IMG/VR virus record: IMGVR_UViG_2721755497_000004
Reading direction: 5' to 3' (one strand)
Source of the DNA: a virus
Taxonomy: Duplodnaviria; Heunggongvirae; Uroviricota; Caudoviricetes
DNA length: 47,379 nucleotides
The position numbers were made by a program, and so were the translations under genes. Under the pieces are notes generated by a model. The model was not told where the DNA came from. It ran no database searches and saw only the letters and a program-made list of their open reading frames with translations. Positions within the stretch are counted from its first letter, which is position 1, and the number at the start of each line of letters is the position of its first letter. Positions 8,596-43,020 of this stretch are shown in pieces.

Positions 8596-9759
8596 TCAGA
8601 ACTGATAAGTCATCCCAACAGCAACGATATTATCTGTCGCAATACCGGCTTTCTGGGTAAATTCGCTTTCATCAATCAGGTTAATTTTATAATCAACATA
8701 AGTGGACATATTTTTGTTAAAGTAATAAGTCGCACCGACATCAATATATTTAACCAGATCCTGGTCGCCATGGTTCACACCACCAACCATAACATCCTGT
8801 CCGCGGGACTGCAGATAAGCCAGAGATGGACGCAGGCCAAAATCGAACTGATACTGAGCAACCATTTCAAGGTTTTGTGCTTTATCCGCAACCCCGGTAT
8901 CACCAAAAGTGGTCATATTCTGGGTTTCGGAATAAATTGCAGCCAGATACAGATTGTTTGCATCATATTTAAGGCCAGTCCCCCACATCTCAGCATACTT
9001 ACCTTTTGCAACGCTGCCGGAATCAACGGACACTTCTTTTTCCGTCACATCCCCCGTTAAAGGATCTTTGACTTCAATAGTTTTGCTACCATTCAGGCCA
9101 TTAACCTGCTTACCTGTACGATCTGACTTAGTATACGCTGCCACAAAACCAAAACCATCAAACTCATAGCTGGCAGAGAAACCATATCCATCACCATTAG
9201 ACTTCTGGAGGTCATCTCGCTCATTTTTTCCCTGATACTGGGCTGCAAAGTTAAGACCATCCACCAGTCCGAAGAAATCTGTATTGCGGTAAGTCAGCAC
9301 TCCGGAAGTACGAGCAGTCATGAAGTTATCAGTCTGCGTCCAGCCATCGCCACCAAATTCTGGCAGAACGTCTGTATACGAACCGACATCATAAGCGATA
9401 CCATAATTACGCCCGTAATCAATGCTACCTAAATCAGCGAATTTCAAACCGGCAAATGCCAGACGGGTTTTATTGCCTGCCGTCCCTTCAGACTCGGCCT
9501 TATTACCTGAAAACTGATATTCCCAGTGACCAAAACCTGTCAGTTGATCATTGATCTGAGTCTCACCTTTAAAACCAAGACGTGCATAGGTCTTATCGCC
9601 ATCATCACCTTTATCGTCTGAGAAGTAATGGAGAGCAGTTACACGACCATAAAGATCCAGCTTATTACCATCTTTATTATAAACTTCTGCTGCCTGAGCC
9701 CCCGCAGCAAACATCACTGCCACTGCAACAGCAGAAAGTGCCACTGTCATTTTTTTCAT
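8596..9759 (-). CDS. OmpC/NmpC/Lc-family outer membrane porin (phage moron)
   Basis: 387-aa ORF with cleavable signal peptide (…[10 protein letters not shown]), enterobacterial general-porin motifs and C-terminal ...GMTYQF; flanked by AT-rich DNA; inserted between tail genes M and L. Confidence 0.9.
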
Positions 9760-24403: not shown

Positions 24404-24946
24404 ATGAACAGATACTCTAAACTTCAAATTCAATTACATTGGCTGACTCTCGTATTAATAGCTATAGCCTGTGCTGCAATGGAACTTCGAGGTTTGTTTC
24501 CTAAAGGGTCTTCCTCCTATTTGCTTATGAGAGAAACACATTACAATGCTGGTATATTTATTCTTCTACTGATGATAATAAGAGTAATTATCAATAATAA
24601 ATATATAACACCAGCTATTACGCCGCCCCCACCTGCATGGCAAATGATATCAGCCAAATTCATGCAAACCCTGTTATACATATCTTTTTTGGTGTTACCA
24701 GTATCAGGACTTGCAATCATGGTTTTTGGAGGTAAAGCATGGAGCCTTCTGGGGATTGATATTCCCACTTTCGCTAACACCGACGGAGAAGTAAAATCCG
24801 TAGCCAAAACTATTCATGAATCACTTGCAAATATTGGTTATTTATTAATCACACTCCATGCTGGCGCTGCATTAATTCATCATTATATTCAGAAGGACAA
24901 TACACTTGTCAGAATGCTCCCTGAGCACCAGCATGATAAAAAGTGA
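24404..24946 (+). CDS. cytochrome b561 family protein (CybB-like, moron)
   Basis: 180-aa ORF with conserved b561 motifs (…YSKLQIQLHWL…, …HESLANIGYLLITLHAGAALIHHYIQKDNTLVRMLP), four predicted TM helices, AT-rich, RBS AAGGGA. Confidence 0.8.
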   Translation: MNRYSKLQIQLHWLTLVLIAIACAAMELRGLFPKGSSSYLLMRETHYNAGIFILLLMIIRVIINNKYITPAITPPPPAWQMISAKFMQTLLYISFLVLPVSGLAIMVFGGKAWSLLGIDIPTFANTDGEVKSVAKTIHESLANIGYLLITLHAGAALIHHYIQKDNTLVRMLPEHQHDKK

Positions 24947-29812: not shown

Positions 29813-29847
29813 TGCAGCCCGTTACCATTCGTAGCGGGCTTTTTTTG
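29813..29847 (+). terminator. plus-strand hairpin plus T7 run
   Basis: AGCCCG...CGGGCT stem followed by TTTTTTT. Confidence 0.45.
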
Positions 29848-29850
29848 TCC

Positions 29851-29876
29851 ATAAAAAAGCCCCTCCGGAGAGGGGC
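29851..29876 (-). terminator. minus-strand intrinsic terminator (GCCCCTC-CGGA-GAGGGGC plus U6)
   Basis: Perfect 7-bp GC stem preceded on the plus strand by AAAAAA; lies downstream (minus sense) of repeat element A. Confidence 0.55.
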
Positions 29877-29907
29877 ATACTAGCTATATATCCATTTATC
29901 ATTGGCT

Positions 29908-30037
29908 GCGTGGTGCCGGGTGCCTCCCGGTGAGCTCAGCCTGGTGTCACTGAGCCCGCACATTCTCGATCCAAGTTATCGTCGGAGATAATACCTGATA
30001 CACCAGACGCCCCTCCGCACAGGGGGATTCACCACGC
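29908..30037 (-). repeat. structured repeat element A (closing helix GCGTGGTG/CACCACGC)
   Basis: 5' arm plus CCGGG-TGCCT-CCCGG hairpin ... variable core ... CCCCT-CCGCAC-AGGGG hairpin plus GATT plus 3' arm; strand assigned from the flanking terminators. Confidence 0.7.
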
Positions 30038-30265
30038 GCAGAGAAGGATACTGAACACTATTTTCTCCAGGCAATATGCAATAACATGAAGTGTGAGATG
30101 ACTTACAATTATAAAAAACAGCCTACAGAATACTCCTAAATAAAGCCATATCAAAATGAGTAACACAAAAAGGAACCAGGCAAAAATTTACGAGCAGGTA
30201 TTATCCAGCAACAGTTCAGACGCCATAACTTATTGCCGATAGCTACCATCAATAATTTCTTTCAT

Positions 30266-30289
30266 AAAAAAGCCCCTCTGAAGAGGGGC
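30266..30289 (-). terminator. minus-strand intrinsic terminator (GCCCCTC-TGAA-GAGGGGC plus U6)
   Basis: Near-identical copy of the element A terminator, downstream (minus sense) of element B. Confidence 0.55.
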
Positions 30290-30316
30290 TGACATACGCA
30301 TTTGCTTTCATCATCA

Positions 30317-30439
30317 ATATGGCGCCGGGTGCCTCCCGGTGCTCCATAACTGATTAATATGGAACGCGGTTTCATTCAGTTGCATTCATGAATAACACTC
30401 TAATCAGTCCGCCCCGCCGCTTAGGGGGATTCGCCATAT
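30317..30439 (-). repeat. structured repeat element B (closing helix ATATGGCG/CGCCATAT, compensatory change)
   Basis: Same architecture as A; terminal helix sequence differs from A but remains perfectly complementary. Confidence 0.7.
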
Positions 30440-30574
30440 AAATTGAAAGTACTGAACACATCTGTCACAAACAATATGCAATTGTATGAATTGTGAGATT
30501 ATTATCAATAACACAAAATTACAGCTCTAGTACATAAACAGCAGATTAAACAAGAACAACAAAAGTATTGAATT

Positions 30575-30700
30575 GCACGGTGCCGGGTGCCTCCCGGTGA
30601 ATTCTGCAATGACCAGACAGAATCCGCAACTTGCTACTAACGCTAATGCGACCAAGCCTAACAGTCATTATGCCCCTCCGCACAGGGGGATTCACCATGC
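30575..30700 (-). repeat. structured repeat element C (closing helix GCACGGTG/CACCATGC, one mismatch)
   Basis: Same conserved hairpins GGTGCCGGGTGCCTCCCGGTGA and CCCCTCCGCACAGGGGGATTCACCA; different variable core. Confidence 0.7.
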
Positions 30701-30829
30701 GCTAAAAAAATACAAAACGTCACGTCACTCTGACAATACGAAGCACCATAAAATGTGAGTTATTTATCAATTCTTAATTCTGGTTACAGGAATATTCCGA
30801 ATCAAATCTTTAAAAAAAGAAATTCAAAT

Positions 30830-30932
30830 GCATGGTGCCGGGTGCCTCCCGGTGAACAGACCGTCCGTGATACCAGTCGGCAACACAGGAAATTAATGGT
30901 ATCACCCCACCGCACAGGGGGATTCACCATGC
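30830..30932 (-). repeat. structured repeat element D (closing helix GCATGGTG/CACCATGC)
   Basis: Same conserved hairpins; shorter variable core containing its own 9-bp hairpin GTGATACCA/TGGTATCAC. Confidence 0.7.
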
Positions 30933-31121
30933 AGGCGTTTTCTTAGCAAACTAACTGCGCGCCCGGCAACTCCCAACCACATAAAACGTGGAGTTTGTAG
31001 CATTTATGCACATAACTCACAGGGGTTATCTTAAAAAAAGCTGACCATGCTTCCCCGGCAACGCAATAACTTTATTCCCTGAAGTGGCATCCCCCGTATT
31101 GTCGGCAGGCTCAAAAAGGAG

Positions 31122-31587: not shown

Positions 31588-31665
31588 TGGACCGTCACCG
31601 GGGACTCGAACCCCGCATTTTCAACATAAAAAGGTTGATGCTCTTTCCTGATGAGCTAGTGACGG
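31588..31665 (-). tRNA. tRNA-like gene with 8-nt anticodon loop (possible unusual tRNA or pseudogene)
   Basis: 7-bp acceptor stem CCGTCAC/GTGACGG, encoded CCA, D arm GCTC/GAGC, T arm CGGGG-TTCGAGT-CCCCG, but anticodon arm TCAAC-CTTTTTAT-GTTGA has an 8-nt loop. Confidence 0.45.
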
Positions 31666-31667
31666 CA

Positions 31668-31742
31668 TGGTTGCCTTGCTGGATTTGAACCAGCGACCTG
31701 GCGATTATGAGTCTCTCGCTCTCACCACTGAGCTAAAGGGCC
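31668..31742 (-). tRNA. tRNA with CAU anticodon (Ile2/Met-like), acceptor and anticodon stems imperfect
   Basis: GGCCCTTTAGCTCAGTGG...CTCATAA...GCTGGTTCAAATCCAGC...CCA; D and T arms canonical; 3 terminal acceptor pairs and 2 anticodon-stem pairs mismatched; one nt short. Confidence 0.55.
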
Positions 31743-36116: not shown

Positions 36117-36272
36117 TTACTCCTCAGGTTCGTAAGCTGTGAAGACAGCGACCTCCGTCTGGCCGGTTCGGATTCGTACCTCGCAGAGGTCTTTCCTCGT
36201 TACCAGTGCCGTCACTATGACGGTTAAACAGATGACGATCAGGGCGATTAACATCGCCTTTTGCTGCTTCAT
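36117..36272 (-). CDS. hokD: Hok-family type I toxin
   Basis: 51-aa MKQQKAMLIALIVICLTVIVTALVTRKDLCEVRIRTGQTEVAVFTAYEPEE, canonical Hok; nested in the longer mok-like frame starting at 36329. Confidence 0.85.
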   Translation of the reverse strand: MKQQKAMLIALIVICLTVIVTALVTRKDLCEVRIRTGQTEVAVFTAYEPEE

Positions 36273-36329
36273 AGCCTGCTTCTCCTTGCCTTTCGGCACG
36301 TAAGAGGCTAACCTAGATTTGCCGTTCAT
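36117..36329 (-). CDS. mok: Mok-like overlapping reading frame
   Basis: 70-aa frame (MNGKSRLASYVPKGKEKQA…) extending upstream of and in frame with hok. Confidence 0.45.
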   Translation of the reverse strand: MNGKSRLASYVPKGKEKQAMKQQKAMLIALIVICLTVIVTALVTRKDLCEVRIRTGQTEVAVFTAYEPEE

Positions 36330-36483
36330 AGATTGAGCCTCAGATTAATGTTAAGCGTCTTGCAGGACGCGTAATGTTAACTGGGGCTTTTCTCTATCTG
36401 CCTTTGGTGTTCATGCCTGAGACAGATAGCCTCAAGCACCCGCAGCCATTCTACTTAACTCCCGTTACCTCGCCAATATAAAA

Positions 36484-39448: not shown

Positions 39449-39844
39449 ATGGATTTTGCAACTATCACAAGTAGCGTTGTGTTGAGTGCGTGTGTTGCAG
39501 GCGTGGTTTCGCTGGTTAATGGTGCCTGGCAACGCAAATCGGAACGAACCATTGAAGCGCAACGCCGGGCTGCTGAAGCCAGAGCAAAAATAAGAGAAAT
39601 GGCTCTCACCCTCGCATTGAAAGAATGGGAGCTCCACCAAACCATATCGAAGGCAAAGGGGTATGGTGTCAGCGGCCCAGAAGTTTACGTCTTTCGATAC
39701 TTTCGTATGCTCAACCTGATGGAGGAAGACAAATTCACGATTGAAAATCTCAGACTGATCCAGTACGACTCCATGTGTGCTGTTGCAGCAATTCAGGCAG
39801 AGATCGAGCGATATCGGGAGAAAAACGGCCTCCCGATGCCATAA
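39449..39844 (+). CDS. hypothetical membrane-anchored coiled-coil protein (counter-oriented moron)
   Basis: 131-aa ORF with RBS GAGGAGG; N-terminal TM then charged helical region; opposite orientation inside the early-right operon. Confidence 0.5.
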   Translation: MDFATITSSVVLSACVAGVVSLVNGAWQRKSERTIEAQRRAAEARAKIREMALTLALKEWELHQTISKAKGYGVSGPEVYVFRYFRMLNLMEEDKFTIENLRLIQYDSMCAVAAIQAEIERYREKNGLPMP

Positions 39845-39848
39845 ACAA

Positions 39849-40070
39849 TCAGCGTTTTTCATATTTCCAAATCCTCATATCAGGCTTGCGCCCAATGAAC
39901 CGACGAAGACAATTTAAAGTCCATCGGGTGAAGTAATCCCTGAAACCAAAGAGATACCAGGTGAACAGATTCACGATAAAATGTCCGGCCAGAGCCCCAC
40001 CAATACCACAGGCAAGAACAGTAAAAAAATCAGGTAGATTCACAGCCCCCTCCGTCATTGTTAACGCCAT
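39849..40070 (-). CDS. hypothetical small membrane protein
   Basis: 73-aa ORF with ATG start and a hydrophobic core. Confidence 0.35.
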   Translation of the reverse strand: MALTMTEGAVNLPDFFTVLACGIGGALAGHFIVNLFTWYLFGFRDYFTRWTLNCLRRFIGRKPDMRIWKYEKR

Positions 40071-40078
40071 CCGTGCTT

Positions 40079-40504
40079 CTAGTGCATCACCACGGCATTT
40101 CCTGCCGGGCCACCACGGTTCATCTGATTGAAACCGGCAATCGCCACTGCGACAAAATCATCAGCGTCTCTCACCAGTCGTTCCCGCGTCTCCACCAGCT
40201 CCCGAAAATAGGCTGAACTGTGGCTGCGCATTCGGGCCACCAGCAAAGGTGGCATTGCCTTTTCGATCGCTGGTAACAACGCCTGAATTTTTTCAACAGC
40301 ATCAGGGGTGTCTTTCTCTACCCAGCGGAAAATTTTCTGGGTATTACGAGCTAGGGCTTCCGGATGGCTGTCGCCGTACAGTTCCGGAAATGTCATTCCC
40401 AGTTCAAAATACGCTTTGGTAATCTTCGCAGTTGGTACTTTCTCGCCATCCGGATGCGCCCAGGCATTCATCGCCATGCGGATGTGCTCATGGCTGATTT
40501 TCAT
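40079..40504 (-). CDS. ydaT: YdaT-like protein
   Basis: 141-aa ORF MKISHEHIRMAM..., directly downstream of and overlapping ydaS as in the Rac prophage. Confidence 0.55.
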   Translation of the reverse strand: MKISHEHIRMAMNAWAHPDGEKVPTAKITKAYFELGMTFPELYGDSHPEALARNTQKIFRWVEKDTPDAVEKIQALLPAIEKAMPPLLVARMRSHSSAYFRELVETRERLVRDADDFVAVAIAGFNQMNRGGPAGNAVVMH

Positions 40505-40811
40505 GAATCATTTGCCTCTTGATATTTCGGGTATGCTCGTTTTCGTCATTTGGTTGCTTCATCAACATATTCAGCGAATAGCATGACGAGCGTCGTAAGT
40601 ATGACCAGTCAACATCAGGACGAAGTTCTTCGCACAGAACACCACCTCTTGTTGCACGTTCAATTGCTGGACATCGCTCAGCAGGCAACTGACGTACACC
40701 TTTGATCCATTGATTTACGCTTGGAGGTGATACACCTAAAAGCCTAGCCATTGCAGATTGCCCACCGACAACAGCACACGCTCGTTTGAATGAATAGTTC
40801 TCTTTTTTCAT
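40488..40811 (-). CDS. ydaS: Cro-like HTH regulator YdaS
   Basis: MKKENYSFKRACAVVGGQSAMARLLGVSPPSVNQWIKGVRQLPAERCPAIERATRG..., HTH Cro/CI type; divergent from the repressor. Confidence 0.7.
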   Translation of the reverse strand: MKKENYSFKRACAVVGGQSAMARLLGVSPPSVNQWIKGVRQLPAERCPAIERATRGGVLCEELRPDVDWSYLRRSSCYSLNMLMKQPNDENEHTRNIKRQMIHENQP

Positions 40812-40842
40812 CGAATGAACTCCAAAAAAACACGAAACAATA

Positions 40843-40908
40843 TTAGGCGACGCCTAATGCAAATGTCAATAGGCGTCGCCTAACACAAATGAAGTAGGGA
40901 TTGCCTAA
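40843..40908. promoter_or_regulatory. operator region: palindromic TTAGGCGACGCCTAA sites between ydaS and racR
   Basis: Two near-perfect 15-bp palindromes (40843-40857, 40869-40883) and a third degenerate half-site (40895-40908). Confidence 0.5.
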
Positions 40909-40936
40909 TGCAATGAGCATAGGAGAGTATTAAGCA

Positions 40937-41413
40937 ATGCTTAGTGGTAAAGACTTAGGCCGAGCGATAGAGCAGGCCATTAACAAAAAAATTGCATCAG
41001 GATCCGTCAAATCAAAGGCGGAGGTAGCGCGTCACTTCAAAGTCCAACCACCATCAATCTATGATTGGATTAAGAAAGGTTCGATAAGTAAAGATAAACT
41101 TCCAGAGCTATGGCGTTTCTTTTCTGATGTGGTTGGCCCAGAGCATTGGGGGCTTAACGAATACCCCATACCAACCTCCCTCATTTCAGATACAAAAAGT
41201 GAACTTTTAGACATAAACAGCCTTTATCAAGCCGCCTCTGATGAAAAAAGAGCCATTGTGGCTTTTCTCTTATCAGAAAATGCCACGGAACCTAGTTGGG
41301 TTGATCATGACGTTCGCGCCTACATTGCCACAATGGAGATGAAGGTAGGTAAGTATTTGAAAGATCGAGAATCAGAACGGAAAAGCCAGAACATCACCAA
41401 AACGGGAACTTAA
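40937..41413 (+). CDS. racR: prophage repressor (RacR-like)
   Basis: 158-aa ORF, RBS AGGAGAG, N-terminal HTH (…SKAEVARHFKVQPPSIYDWIKKG…), divergently transcribed from ydaS. Confidence 0.65.
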   Translation: MLSGKDLGRAIEQAINKKIASGSVKSKAEVARHFKVQPPSIYDWIKKGSISKDKLPELWRFFSDVVGPEHWGLNEYPIPTSLISDTKSELLDINSLYQAASDEKRAIVAFLLSENATEPSWVDHDVRAYIATMEMKVGKYLKDRESERKSQNITKTGT

Positions 41414-41480
41414 ACTTATATGGTCTGATGGGAACTTCCTAGAGCCCGTTATCTAGCCCCCCATCACCTCTTCCACATAT

Positions 41481-41540
41481 CATCGCCTATTAGGTTTGCG
41501 TCAAAAACATTAGGCTAAGCCTATTGACAATTAATTAGGC
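41481..41540. promoter_or_regulatory. additional TTAGGC-type palindromic sites downstream of racR
   Basis: TTAGGCTAAGCCTAT palindrome at 41509-41523 and related half-sites. Confidence 0.35.
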
Positions 41541-41732
41541 ATTACCTATAGTTCTCCCATACCACCCCACCCCGCCCACAGAACACCGGGCAATACTTCG
41601 AGTTACCCGGCAGTGGTCAGGGGTTAAGTAGCCAGCCTGAGGCGTAAGAACATGACGGCAGGGTTCAACTTTAATAACTATGCAGCAGGTTTTTGTTCCG
41701 CTCCCCCGGCGTTAAGGGGAAATGAGGTCAAC

Positions 41733-41885
41733 ATGGATACGCTCAATCTTGGTAACAACGAATCTCTTGTATGCGGTGTGTTCCCTAACCAGGACGGCAC
41801 CTTCACCGCGATGACGTATACCAAAAGTAAAACGTTTAAAAACGCAGCTGGCGCGTATCGCTGGTTAGCAAGAAACTCTAACTAA
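41733..41885 (+). CDS. hypothetical small protein
   Basis: ~50 aa from the MDTLNLGNNES Met. Confidence 0.3.
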   Translation: MDTLNLGNNESLVCGVFPNQDGTFTAMTYTKSKTFKNAAGAYRWLARNSN

Positions 41886-41998
41886 TGAAGTCTGGTAGTT
41901 AAGGAATCCTCCACGGGGAGAACTGGTGCACACGCGCCGGACACAAGCAAGCATCCGGCATGCTCTTTAACAATCTGGATATCCATAACAGTAACAAT

Positions 41999-42556
41999 CT
42001 ACAGATTGCCGTTCAGTTTTCTGGCCAACTCCTCAATAGATGGAGGCGATACATAATCCGGATTTTTATTCATAAGAAACTGATTTTCACAGTAGAGGCA
42101 CCTGCTTTTATGAAAAAACTCATATTCTCTAACCGGGAATGGTTGAAGTATCGATACTATCTTTTGTCCAAAACATTTTGGACAAAGATGCATGATTATG
42201 CTGCCGCCGTTCACGGTTACCTCCTTCGAGTACACAAAAGTTCCCGACTCAAGTTGGTTAAGGATATAACCTTCCGTCTGAGCCTCAAAGTTTTCAAATT
42301 CTGCAATTTTAGCTTTGAGAGAAGCATTTATTTCTTGATAAGTGCCCACCAGCTCAACGAGAGACACGCATTCGCGCTGAATAGATGCAAGCTTTGAGTT
42401 CAGTTCACCAATAGCCGCATTTACTTCAGCTTGAGTTTTTGCCTCGTTCATTAGTTTTGCAATCTGAGCGGTTTCACGAATAGCCGTCATTGCTGCCGTT
42501 AATTCAGCGATCACATTCAATACTCTTATTGTTGTTGGGGATATCCAGATTAACAA
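41999..42556 (-). CDS. hypothetical coiled-coil protein with C-terminal zinc-ribbon (CPKC...CLYC)
   Basis: 185-aa AT-rich ORF counter-oriented within the leftward early region next to the repressor; exact start uncertain. Confidence 0.5.
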   Translation of the reverse strand: MLIWISPTTIRVLNVIAELTAAMTAIRETAQIAKLMNEAKTQAEVNAAIGELNSKLASIQRECVSLVELVGTYQEINASLKAKIAEFENFEAQTEGYILNQLESGTFVYSKEVTVNGGSIIMHLCPKCFGQKIVSILQPFPVREYEFFHKSRCLYCENQFLMNKNPDYVSPPSIEELARKLNGNL

Positions 42557-42864
42557 GATCCTTGTTGTTGGGGAATAACAGGTCCACCTCGCCTGACGTG
42601 GTTAAAAGCAGGCACACAACACGAAAGCGCTCGGCGAAGTTCGTCTCTCTGTACTTTGTCGTTAAATTTAATTCGACCGTGCGCTTCCGGTTGTGGCAAT
42701 CCGCGAAATAGCGCGGCGGTAAGTATGGCGGGGTTATTCCTTCCCCCATTGAGGACACCGGGTTGTCAGGTTGACCATACGCTTAAGTGACACCCCAGCC
42801 ACAACAACCTCTGTTATCACTTTTCTGGTGATTCGGCGGAAATGGATATCCGCCCTTTTTAAAG

Positions 42865-43020
42865 TGAATTTTGTGATGCGGTGAATGCGGCTATGCGCAC
42901 GCGGAACAGTTAAAACAAGCGGTCTTTTACTTCCGTAACAGACATCAACTAACAATCCGGCGTTAATTGTTAACTGGTTAACGTCATCTGGAGGCACCAG
43001 GCACCGCATCACAAAATTCA
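42865..43020. repeat. pair of perfect 19-bp inverted repeats (TGAATTTTGTGATGCGGTG / CACCGCATCACAAAATTCA) flanking 118 bp
   Basis: Exact reverse complements at 42865-42883 and 43002-43020; interior contains GTTAAC-type palindromes. Confidence 0.6.

Follow-up and report, generated by a model that had tools for sequence, protein, structure and literature searches.

Organisation of the racR-ydaS-ydaT locus

The locus described here, a repressor gene of the racR type with its ydaS-like and ydaT-like neighbours, lies on a 47,379 nt stretch of Caudoviricetes DNA (IMG/VR record IMGVR_UViG_2721755497_000004), which is called the window in the following. It comprises an entire prophage located between potB and potC of E. 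coli. In E. coli strains M3 and M1, both from mouse, the region recurs with 100% identity, and RefSeq annotates racR, a YdaT-family protein, a helix-turn-helix (HTH) protein and a DUF1391 protein there. Three genes make up the locus. racR (40937-41413, + strand) is divergent from the ydaS-like gene (40488-40811, - strand), which is followed by the ydaT-like gene (40079-40504, - strand). The reading frame of the latter shares 17 nt with the end of ydaS. An initial annotation made from the sequence alone had proposed a RacR-like repressor divergent from a ydaS/ydaT pair, and this gene layout is confirmed. Of the interval named there (40488-41540), ydaT falls outside, and the last downstream site is cut at 41540.

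RacR comprises 158 aa and was assigned by identity to the K-12 protein, by RefSeq and by the NCBIfam equivalog NF049929 (245.9 bits at a cut-off of 200). Compared to RacR of K-12, 148 of 158 residues are identical (94%), including all of residues 1-80. The protein consists of an N-terminal HTH and a C-terminal oligomerisation domain that is not of the S24 type. Pfam gives a weak HTH match only; Peptidase_S24 is not found in RacR by Pfam, and the feature expected of a lambda-type self-cleaving repressor is thus missing. Moreover, an exact match to the LexA box (CTGT-N8-ACAG) is not present in the window, so there is no evidence for an antirepressor under SOS control. The locus shows the arrangement of the RacR family, in which a ydaS-type gene is divergent and the stretch between the two genes holds TTAGGC-N3-GCCTAA operators.

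The ydaS-like product, a Cro analogue of 107 aa according to K-12 identity, Pfam and PHROG, is 86% identical to K-12 YdaS and is a member of the Pfam family YdaS_toxin (PF15943; 4.3e-30, 103.8 bits, cut-off 30). It also matches P22_Cro (1.3e-08, 34.9 bits, cut-off 30.2) and groups into PHROG 35, transcriptional repressor. The ydaT-like product has 141 aa and is assigned as a CII-analogue transcription factor based on Pfam, PHROG and PDB. It belongs to the family YdaT_toxin (PF06254; 7.4e-10, 39.6 bits, cut-off 21) and to PHROG 163, 'CII-like transcriptional activator' (1.3e-44), and aligns over its full length with PDB entries 3C4R (2.3e-87) and 8BT1, the latter being YdaT of CP-933P (1.3e-80), which has a POU-like HTH domain and a C-terminal tetramerisation helix. 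The identity to K-12 YdaT is only 31%. By these alignments the protein is of the CP-933P subtype, and since it matches CP-933P YdaT in full length but K-12 YdaT poorly, the region reads as a mosaic of Rac immunity and a CP-933P-type CII analogue. The names RacR, YdaS and YdaT given in the initial annotation therefore stand up to alignment with K-12 as far as families and the first two identities are concerned, with YdaT being of the other type.

Operators and promoters on both sides of racR

Operators were searched with the 15 bp pattern TTAGGC-N3-GCCTAA (TTAGGCNNNGCCTAA), against which all mismatches are counted; sites are given without a strand. Four of them are located between ydaS and racR. 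TTAGGCGACGCCTAA (40843-40857, 0 mismatches) is identical in K-12 and lies between the -35 and -10 elements of the ydaS promoter. ATAGGCGTCGCCTAA (40869-40883, 1 mismatch) abuts the -35 element of the same promoter; its half-sites are conserved with regard to K-12 while the central N3 is different. GTAGGGATTGCCTAA (40894-40908, 2 mismatches) is located over the racR promoter region and identical in K-12, and its equivalent at -42 is conserved across genera. TTAAGCAATGCTTAG (40930-40944, 3 mismatches) spans the ATG of racR and represents a putative autoregulatory site. The operator at this position (-7) is the most widely conserved one, being present with ≤ 2 mismatches in 23 of the 28 loci compared below. 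Further on, at 40955-40960, there is a single TTAGGC half-site. The two near-perfect palindromes and the degenerate third one reported initially correspond to the sites with 0, 1 and 2 mismatches and occupy exactly 40843-40908; the fourth operator and the half-site had not been listed. The PR-like promoter of ydaS-ydaT (40840-40869, - strand) was found by a promoter scan with 10 of 12 matches. It consists of a -35 TTGACA, a spacer of 18 nt and a -10 TAATAT.

Counterparts of these elements have been studied experimentally in K-12. PydaS, the single ydaS promoter there, has identical hexamers and was mapped by primer extension and mutagenesis (Wisniewska et al. 2022; PMC9638921). DNase I footprints of RacR led to the consensus (T/A)TAGGC-n3-GCCTA(T/A), whereby the equivalent of TTAGGCGACGCCTAA was protected at the lowest RacR concentration, and the racR transcript is mainly leaderless with one operator overlapping the ATG (PMC9638921). 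Between racR and ydaS, Krishnamurthi et al. 2017 noted three palindromic repeats; they also obtained three complexes in electrophoretic mobility shift assays, enrichment in chromatin immunoprecipitation with quantitative PCR and RacR-dependent repression (PMC5700373). Four inverted repeats were reported later on, together with an octameric RacR in size-exclusion chromatography (PMC11014345). Specific operator binding and repression of the ydaS promoter are thus demonstrated for the K-12 protein (PMC5700373, PMC9638921), and the view of the palindromes as RacR operators, already taken in the initial annotation, is backed by the K-12 footprints (PMC9638921). Based on the identical DNA-binding domain and half-sites, RacR of the window is expected to bind its operators and to repress the ydaS promoter in the same manner.

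Within the 47.4 kb of the window there are five matches with ≤ 2 mismatches, all of them inside a stretch of 710 bp. Shuffling the whole window yields 1.34 such matches on average, and five were reached in 2 of 100 shuffles. DNA alignments with K-12 reveal unchanged half-sites, while N3 centres and the spacers between sites differ. Retention of half-sites combined with variable centres and spacers looks like the signature of an operator.

An inverted repeat resembling the YdaT-box, ATGATTCATGAAAATCAG, is located over the ydaT start codon (40494-40511, - strand) and was identified by positional homology to the K-12 box. It agrees with the K-12 YdaT-box ATGATTCATGAAAATCAA at 17 of 18 bases and occupies the same position in the DNA alignment. 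Compared to the CP-933P YdaT consensus TTGATT-N6-AATCAA it has 2 mismatches, the right half-site being AATCAG instead of AATCAA, and the three such matches in the window are not above chance (2.6 expected). In K-12, YdaT is a CII analogue that binds ATGATTCATGAAAATCAA at the ydaT start and activates PracR4, a reverse promoter inside ydaS (PMC11879457). By homology to K-12, CTGACG at 40689-40694 (+ strand) would be the -35 element of the corresponding YdaT-activated promoter within ydaS, an analogue of lambda PRE.

Two further sites are located ~100 bp beyond the racR stop codon at a spacing of 25 bp. TTAGGCTAAGCCTAT (41510-41524, 1 mismatch) is conserved in K-12, and TTAGGCATTACCTAT (41535-41549, 2 mismatches) is identical in K-12. 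Both are listed as distal operators of the OL type, after the left operators of lambda. Related sites after the repressor had been noticed initially, and they are real. The pair is interwoven with an outward, near-consensus promoter similar to lambda PL (41524-41552, + strand; TTGACA, 17 nt spacer, TATAGT), which the promoter scan gives with 11 of 12 matches. TTAGGCTAAGCCTAT overlaps the -35 element by ending in the T of TTGACA, while TTAGGCATTACCTAT fills the spacer between -35 and -10 and overlaps the latter. This promoter mirrors the ydaS promoter, forming with it the inverted repeat I2 (23 nt, 87% complementary). It is directed away from racR into DUF1391-dicB-exo-xis-int (downstream genes according to RefSeq). 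The DUF1391 gene, ydaF/ydfA-like (41733-41885, + strand; Pfam DUF1391 1.7e-27, PHROG 751, RefSeq CDS), is the first annotated gene of this leftward-type early operon. By sequence, the far side of racR carries a further set of operators over an outward promoter, as is typical for OL/PL of lambda. We infer from the sequence that the pair and its embedded promoter constitute an OL/PL analogue which is occupied by RacR. A more degenerate, operator-like sequence, TTAGGTTTGCGTCAA, precedes the pair at 41490-41504. It deviates from the pattern at 5 positions here, compared to 3 in K-12 and 2 in E. ruysiae (locus L007), and an equivalent is absent from the loci of the other genera examined. It possibly represents a weak third OL site.

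The leader between the PL-like promoter and DUF1391 (41553-41732, + strand, ~180 nt) is highly conserved with K-12. An upstream open reading frame starts in it at 41652 and runs through into DUF1391 in another frame, while the K-12 counterpart of its ATG appears to open a frame of ~17 codons (read from DNA, not translated). A nut-like or riboregulatory element in this leader was considered and dropped because the leader RNA (177 nt) is not unusually structured, folding no better than its shuffles (z = +1.03).

A published description of RacR sites downstream of racR was not found, the older subscription-only rac/sbcA literature being outside of the search, and the RacR regulon is stated to be uncharacterised in one paper. 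Depletion of RacR in K-12 derepresses ydaG, ydaF, kilR, recET, xisR and intR 40- to 100-fold, besides ydaST.

Conservation among relatives of RacR

To place the sites in a wider context we compared 28 genomic loci of RacR relatives from Gamma- and Betaproteobacteria (169 kb). They contain 107 operator sites with ≤ 2 mismatches, compared to 5.4 expected in shuffles. The majority (67 of 107) lies immediately before the repressor gene, near -94, -67, -42 and -7. Escherichia exhibits four intergenic operators (-94, -68, -43, -7), other genera three, and in Escherichia the TTGACA of the ydaS promoter adjoins the extra site. This suggests, from the alignment, that the extra site arose by duplication of a 26 bp operator unit.

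A downstream pair with a spacing of 24-26 bp is present in 16 of the 28 loci, whereas 200 shuffles produced no pair. The genera include Escherichia, Mixta, Morganella, Proteus, Erwinia, Achromobacter, Pigmentiphaga, Burkholderia, Herbaspirillum and others. The pair is located 0.55-0.62 kb from the repressor start in the first five of these and in an unclassified Pseudomonadota metagenome-assembled genome (MAG; L010), and 1.2-3.2 kb in Achromobacter, Pigmentiphaga, Burkholderia, Herbaspirillum and a second unclassified Pseudomonadota MAG (L027). In this latter group a longer repressor and additional genes account for the distance. All 15 loci displayed follow the order site-TTGACA-10 nt-site-TA(A/T)A(T/G)T. 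Such an arrangement fits an OL/PL analogue that would travel together with its repressor.

The N-terminal 73 residues are highly conserved in all RacR relatives. In some of them (P0103, P0105, P0112, P0118, L014 and L016) the RacR N-terminal domain (about 75% identical) is joined to Peptidase_S24. P0105 is a Pectobacterium protein of 235 aa; L014 (3001-4098) and L016 (3001-4101) are Achromobacter loci encoding 365-366 aa. The S24-fused loci keep the operators and the divergent YdaS-type gene, and L016 has a lambda-type CII (PF05269) in place of YdaT. DNA-binding module, Cro partner and operators therefore seem, judged from these loci, to be a cassette with interchangeable C-terminal and CII parts.

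A probable lambda-like immunity switch and competing explanations

We consider it very probable that 40079-41552 governs immunity (lysis-lysogeny) in a lambdoid prophage that looks complete, and operates as a switch similar to CI/Cro/CII of lambda. The repressor is divergent from analogues of cro and cII, and multiple operators are located over the counterparts of PR and PRM, as in lambda. RacR would be the maintenance repressor of CI type, binding the 15 bp TTAGGC-N3-GCCTAA operators as dimers by its N-terminal HTH. At the ydaS-proximal operators (40843, 40869), which flank the -35 and overlap the -10 element, it would shut the PR-like promoter. The racR-proximal operators (40894, 40930) cover the racR promoters and the ATG and may serve autoregulation. 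On the distal pair (41510, 41535) RacR would block the PL analogue, and if the pair is read in this way one repressor silences both early operons. Upon loss of RacR, YdaS and YdaT would be made as Cro and CII analogues and both early operons be expressed. YdaT at the box over its own start codon would then drive the reverse promoter inside ydaS. Toxicity of YdaS and YdaT would be a by-product of derepression rather than a dedicated addiction function.

Identities, site positions, promoter matches and cross-genus conservation were computed here, while RacR binding, the mapped ydaS promoter and the function of YdaT are taken from work on K-12. As operators, PydaS promoter and RacR binding have already been shown in K-12 (PMC5700373, PMC9638921), the RacR/YdaS/YdaT switch as such is already known, and the sole, modest addition is the distal pair of operators, conserved together with the promoter embedded in it. 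The main use of the analysis is a correct annotation: the prophage between potB and potC has Rac immunity specificity and a YdaT of CP-933P type. A conserved distal pair in an outward promoter would moreover explain the derepression of recET, kilR, xis and int on RacR depletion.

Several points weigh against this interpretation. RacR has no S24 domain and the window no exact LexA box. The RacR binding experiments found in the literature cover the racR-ydaS intergenic region only, and the published view of the octamer is that of four dimers on the four intergenic sites and not of a bridge between OL and OR, the left and right operators. The increase of leftward genes after RacR depletion in K-12 could be indirect. 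The 16 loci with a downstream pair amount to roughly 12 independent lineages, since four of them (L004-L007) are near-identical Escherichia loci. Finally, the DNA alignment shows CTGACG as -35 of the PRE-like promoter where K-12 has TTGACG, and, in contrast to Cro of lambda, YdaS of K-12 reportedly fails to repress racR.

The distal pair offers an alternative reading of the reported octamer: bridging of OL and OR by the octamer reported for K-12 RacR is possible. A more far-reaching proposal combines two parts, and jointly we hold it only tentatively, somewhat short of even chances. On the one hand, the distal pair would be a genuine OL which the octamer bridges to the intergenic operators (~0.65 kb loop), rather than four dimers occupying the intergenic region. 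On the other hand, RacR N-terminus, YdaS-type Cro and TTAGGC-N3-GCCTAA would form an old prophage cassette of Gamma- and Betaproteobacteria, in which the C-terminal half of the repressor has been swapped, being either an S24 domain that is SOS-cleavable or the RacR domain, which is non-cleavable. The S24-fused relatives indicate that DNA-binding and induction-sensing modules of this repressor family were swapped in evolution, and the exchange proposed here would imply a RecA-independent induction route for Rac-type prophages.

The initial annotation had added that the switch doubles as an addiction-like module since YdaS and YdaT are toxic when derepressed. Toxicity is published (PMC5700377, PMC5700373); racR is essential in K-12, expression of ydaS/ydaT arrests growth, the Pfam families are named 'YdaS_toxin' and 'YdaT_toxin', and a preprint of 2026 still uses the wording toxin-repressor. 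Accordingly, the locus might primarily be an addiction-like, atypical toxin-antitoxin module in which RacR silences two toxins so that the host cannot lose racR. We regard this as unlikely. RacR is divergently transcribed and acts on the transcription of the divergent gene via operators, apparently not as a protein antitoxin by protein-protein neutralisation. For the same reason a type II system, which is a co-transcribed operon, was rejected: racR is divergent from ydaS-ydaT and control is operator-based. YdaS also matches P22_Cro, and for YdaT, a CII equivalent that binds DNA, the structure has been characterised. Jobling 2018 considers YdaS and YdaT as equivalents of Cro and CII and not as toxins, points out that lysogens depend on the repressor of whatever prophage they carry and cites a study from 2010 that found no toxin-antitoxin evidence (PMC5917428); the assignment to Cro and CII is shared by PMC11879457, PMC9986795 and PMC8630535. 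In Achromobacter the cassette of RacR N-terminal domain and YdaS is combined with CII of lambda type and a repressor of S24 type, which is a standard phage switch. Since the present prophage appears complete, losing its repressor would amount to induction, as with any prophage repressor.

A different explanation concerns the distal sites, which might be remnants of duplication or recombination, or sites for YdaS or another factor, with control by RacR being restricted to the intergenic region. The restriction of published binding experiments to that region and the statement of an uncharacterised regulon are compatible with this, as is the frequent mosaic recombination in the region, illustrated by the swap of the YdaT subtype. 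We rate it as very unlikely nevertheless. A pair at fixed 24-26 bp with embedded TTGACA and -10 recurs in about 12 independent lineages at distances of 0.55-3.2 kb, distal half-sites are conserved with K-12 while the N3 centres vary, leftward genes rise 40- to 100-fold on RacR depletion in K-12, and a PL/OL with experimental support occupies the same position in CP-933P. That the palindromes are functionless chance or low-complexity matches is next to impossible. It is true that 14 sites are found in the window at up to 3 mismatches where shuffles predict 14.3, but the five with ≤ 2 mismatches all cluster within 710 bp, sites are identical and footprinted in K-12, and the 28 loci contain 107 sites versus 5.4 expected, which together ruled out this origin. 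Taken together, an immunity switch of lambda type remains the reading which we prefer for the locus.

Prophage context and likeness to known systems

Besides the immunity region, dicB, an exonuclease gene, xis and int, the prophage has lambda-like genes for tail, head, portal and terminase, a lysis cassette, replication genes and an antiterminator of the Q type. It appears to be complete, which distinguishes it from the cryptic Rac of K-12. The phage database returned partial matches only with a coverage of up to 64%, so there is no sequenced free phage with exactly this region. Rfam at gathering thresholds gave no match in 40000-43000; all matches are elsewhere in the window, namely at 29847-30962, 31591-31739 and 36267-36441 (all - strand). 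They comprise four tandem copies of the small RNA family STnc100 (76-133 bits), two tRNA genes, being Lys and Ile according to RefSeq, and the sok antitoxin RNA which adjoins hokD.

Convergent with the PL-type operon, a gene for 185 aa is located at 41999-42556 (- strand) in the position of sieB in K-12 Rac. Its product belongs to phrog_1244 (function unknown) and has a coiled-coil region and C-terminal cysteine pairs. No Pfam match is above the curated cut-off, TMF_TATA_bd being weak (17.9 bits versus 29.1), and PADLOC gave no match for this protein or for RacR. It may be expressed in the lysogen and exclude superinfecting phage. A second gene (39449-39844, + strand) lies on the opposite strand between ydaT and the replication genes. 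Its product of 131 aa matches the PADLOC model PD-Lambda-6 in full length (E = 9.2e-90) as well as phrog_36733 and is a candidate for a single-gene anti-phage defence. Further cargo was located by the RefSeq annotation of NZ_CP010183.1, window positions being record positions minus 33256. It includes a second Hok/Gef toxin gene near the tail fibre genes (about 2381-2491), an OmpC-type porin gene within the tail gene cluster (about 8596-9759) and a cytochrome b gene near the lysis/terminase region (about 24404-24946).

The closest known system is Rac of K-12. It shares the operator consensus, the four intergenic sites at -94, -68, -43 and -7, the PydaS hexamers TTGACA/TAATAT, the position of the YdaT-box and two sites with a promoter downstream of racR, together with a RacR (94%) of identical DNA-binding domain and YdaS (86%). 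In contrast, K-12 Rac is a cryptic element of 23 kb at ttcA and not a full-length lambdoid prophage at potB/potC. YdaT is of another subtype (31% identity), ydaS here has a different C-terminal tail and overlaps ydaT, and the PRE-like -35 differs as stated above. Downstream of PL, K-12 has ydaG-ydaF-sieB-kilR instead of DUF1391-dicB.

The paaR2/ydaS/ydaT region of CP-933P in E. coli O157:H7 (PMC8630535, PMC9986795) resembles the locus by a nearly identical YdaT (8BT1, E = 1.3e-80), the CI/Cro/CII-like logic, an octameric repressor and a PL with OL sites on the far side of the repressor operon. The repressor PaaR2 is different, however, with palindromic operators of 18 bp (consensus GTTTAGTAA), and the toxin-antitoxin pair paaA2-parE2 between repressor and PL is absent here.

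With lambda itself the locus has in common a repressor divergent from cro-cII, operators about 25 bp apart over both promoters, a second operator set at an outward promoter beyond the repressor gene and a CII-type activator driving a reverse promoter, as well as leaderless repressor mRNA (reported for K-12 racR) and an octameric repressor. Apart from the HTH fold, however, the sequences are not homologous. RacR lacks the S24 self-cleavage domain, and YdaS reportedly does not repress racR. Lambda has three OR and three OL sites compared to four OR-type and two clear OL-type sites here, and while lambda CII recognises a direct repeat, YdaT is a POU-like tetramer recognising an inverted repeat.

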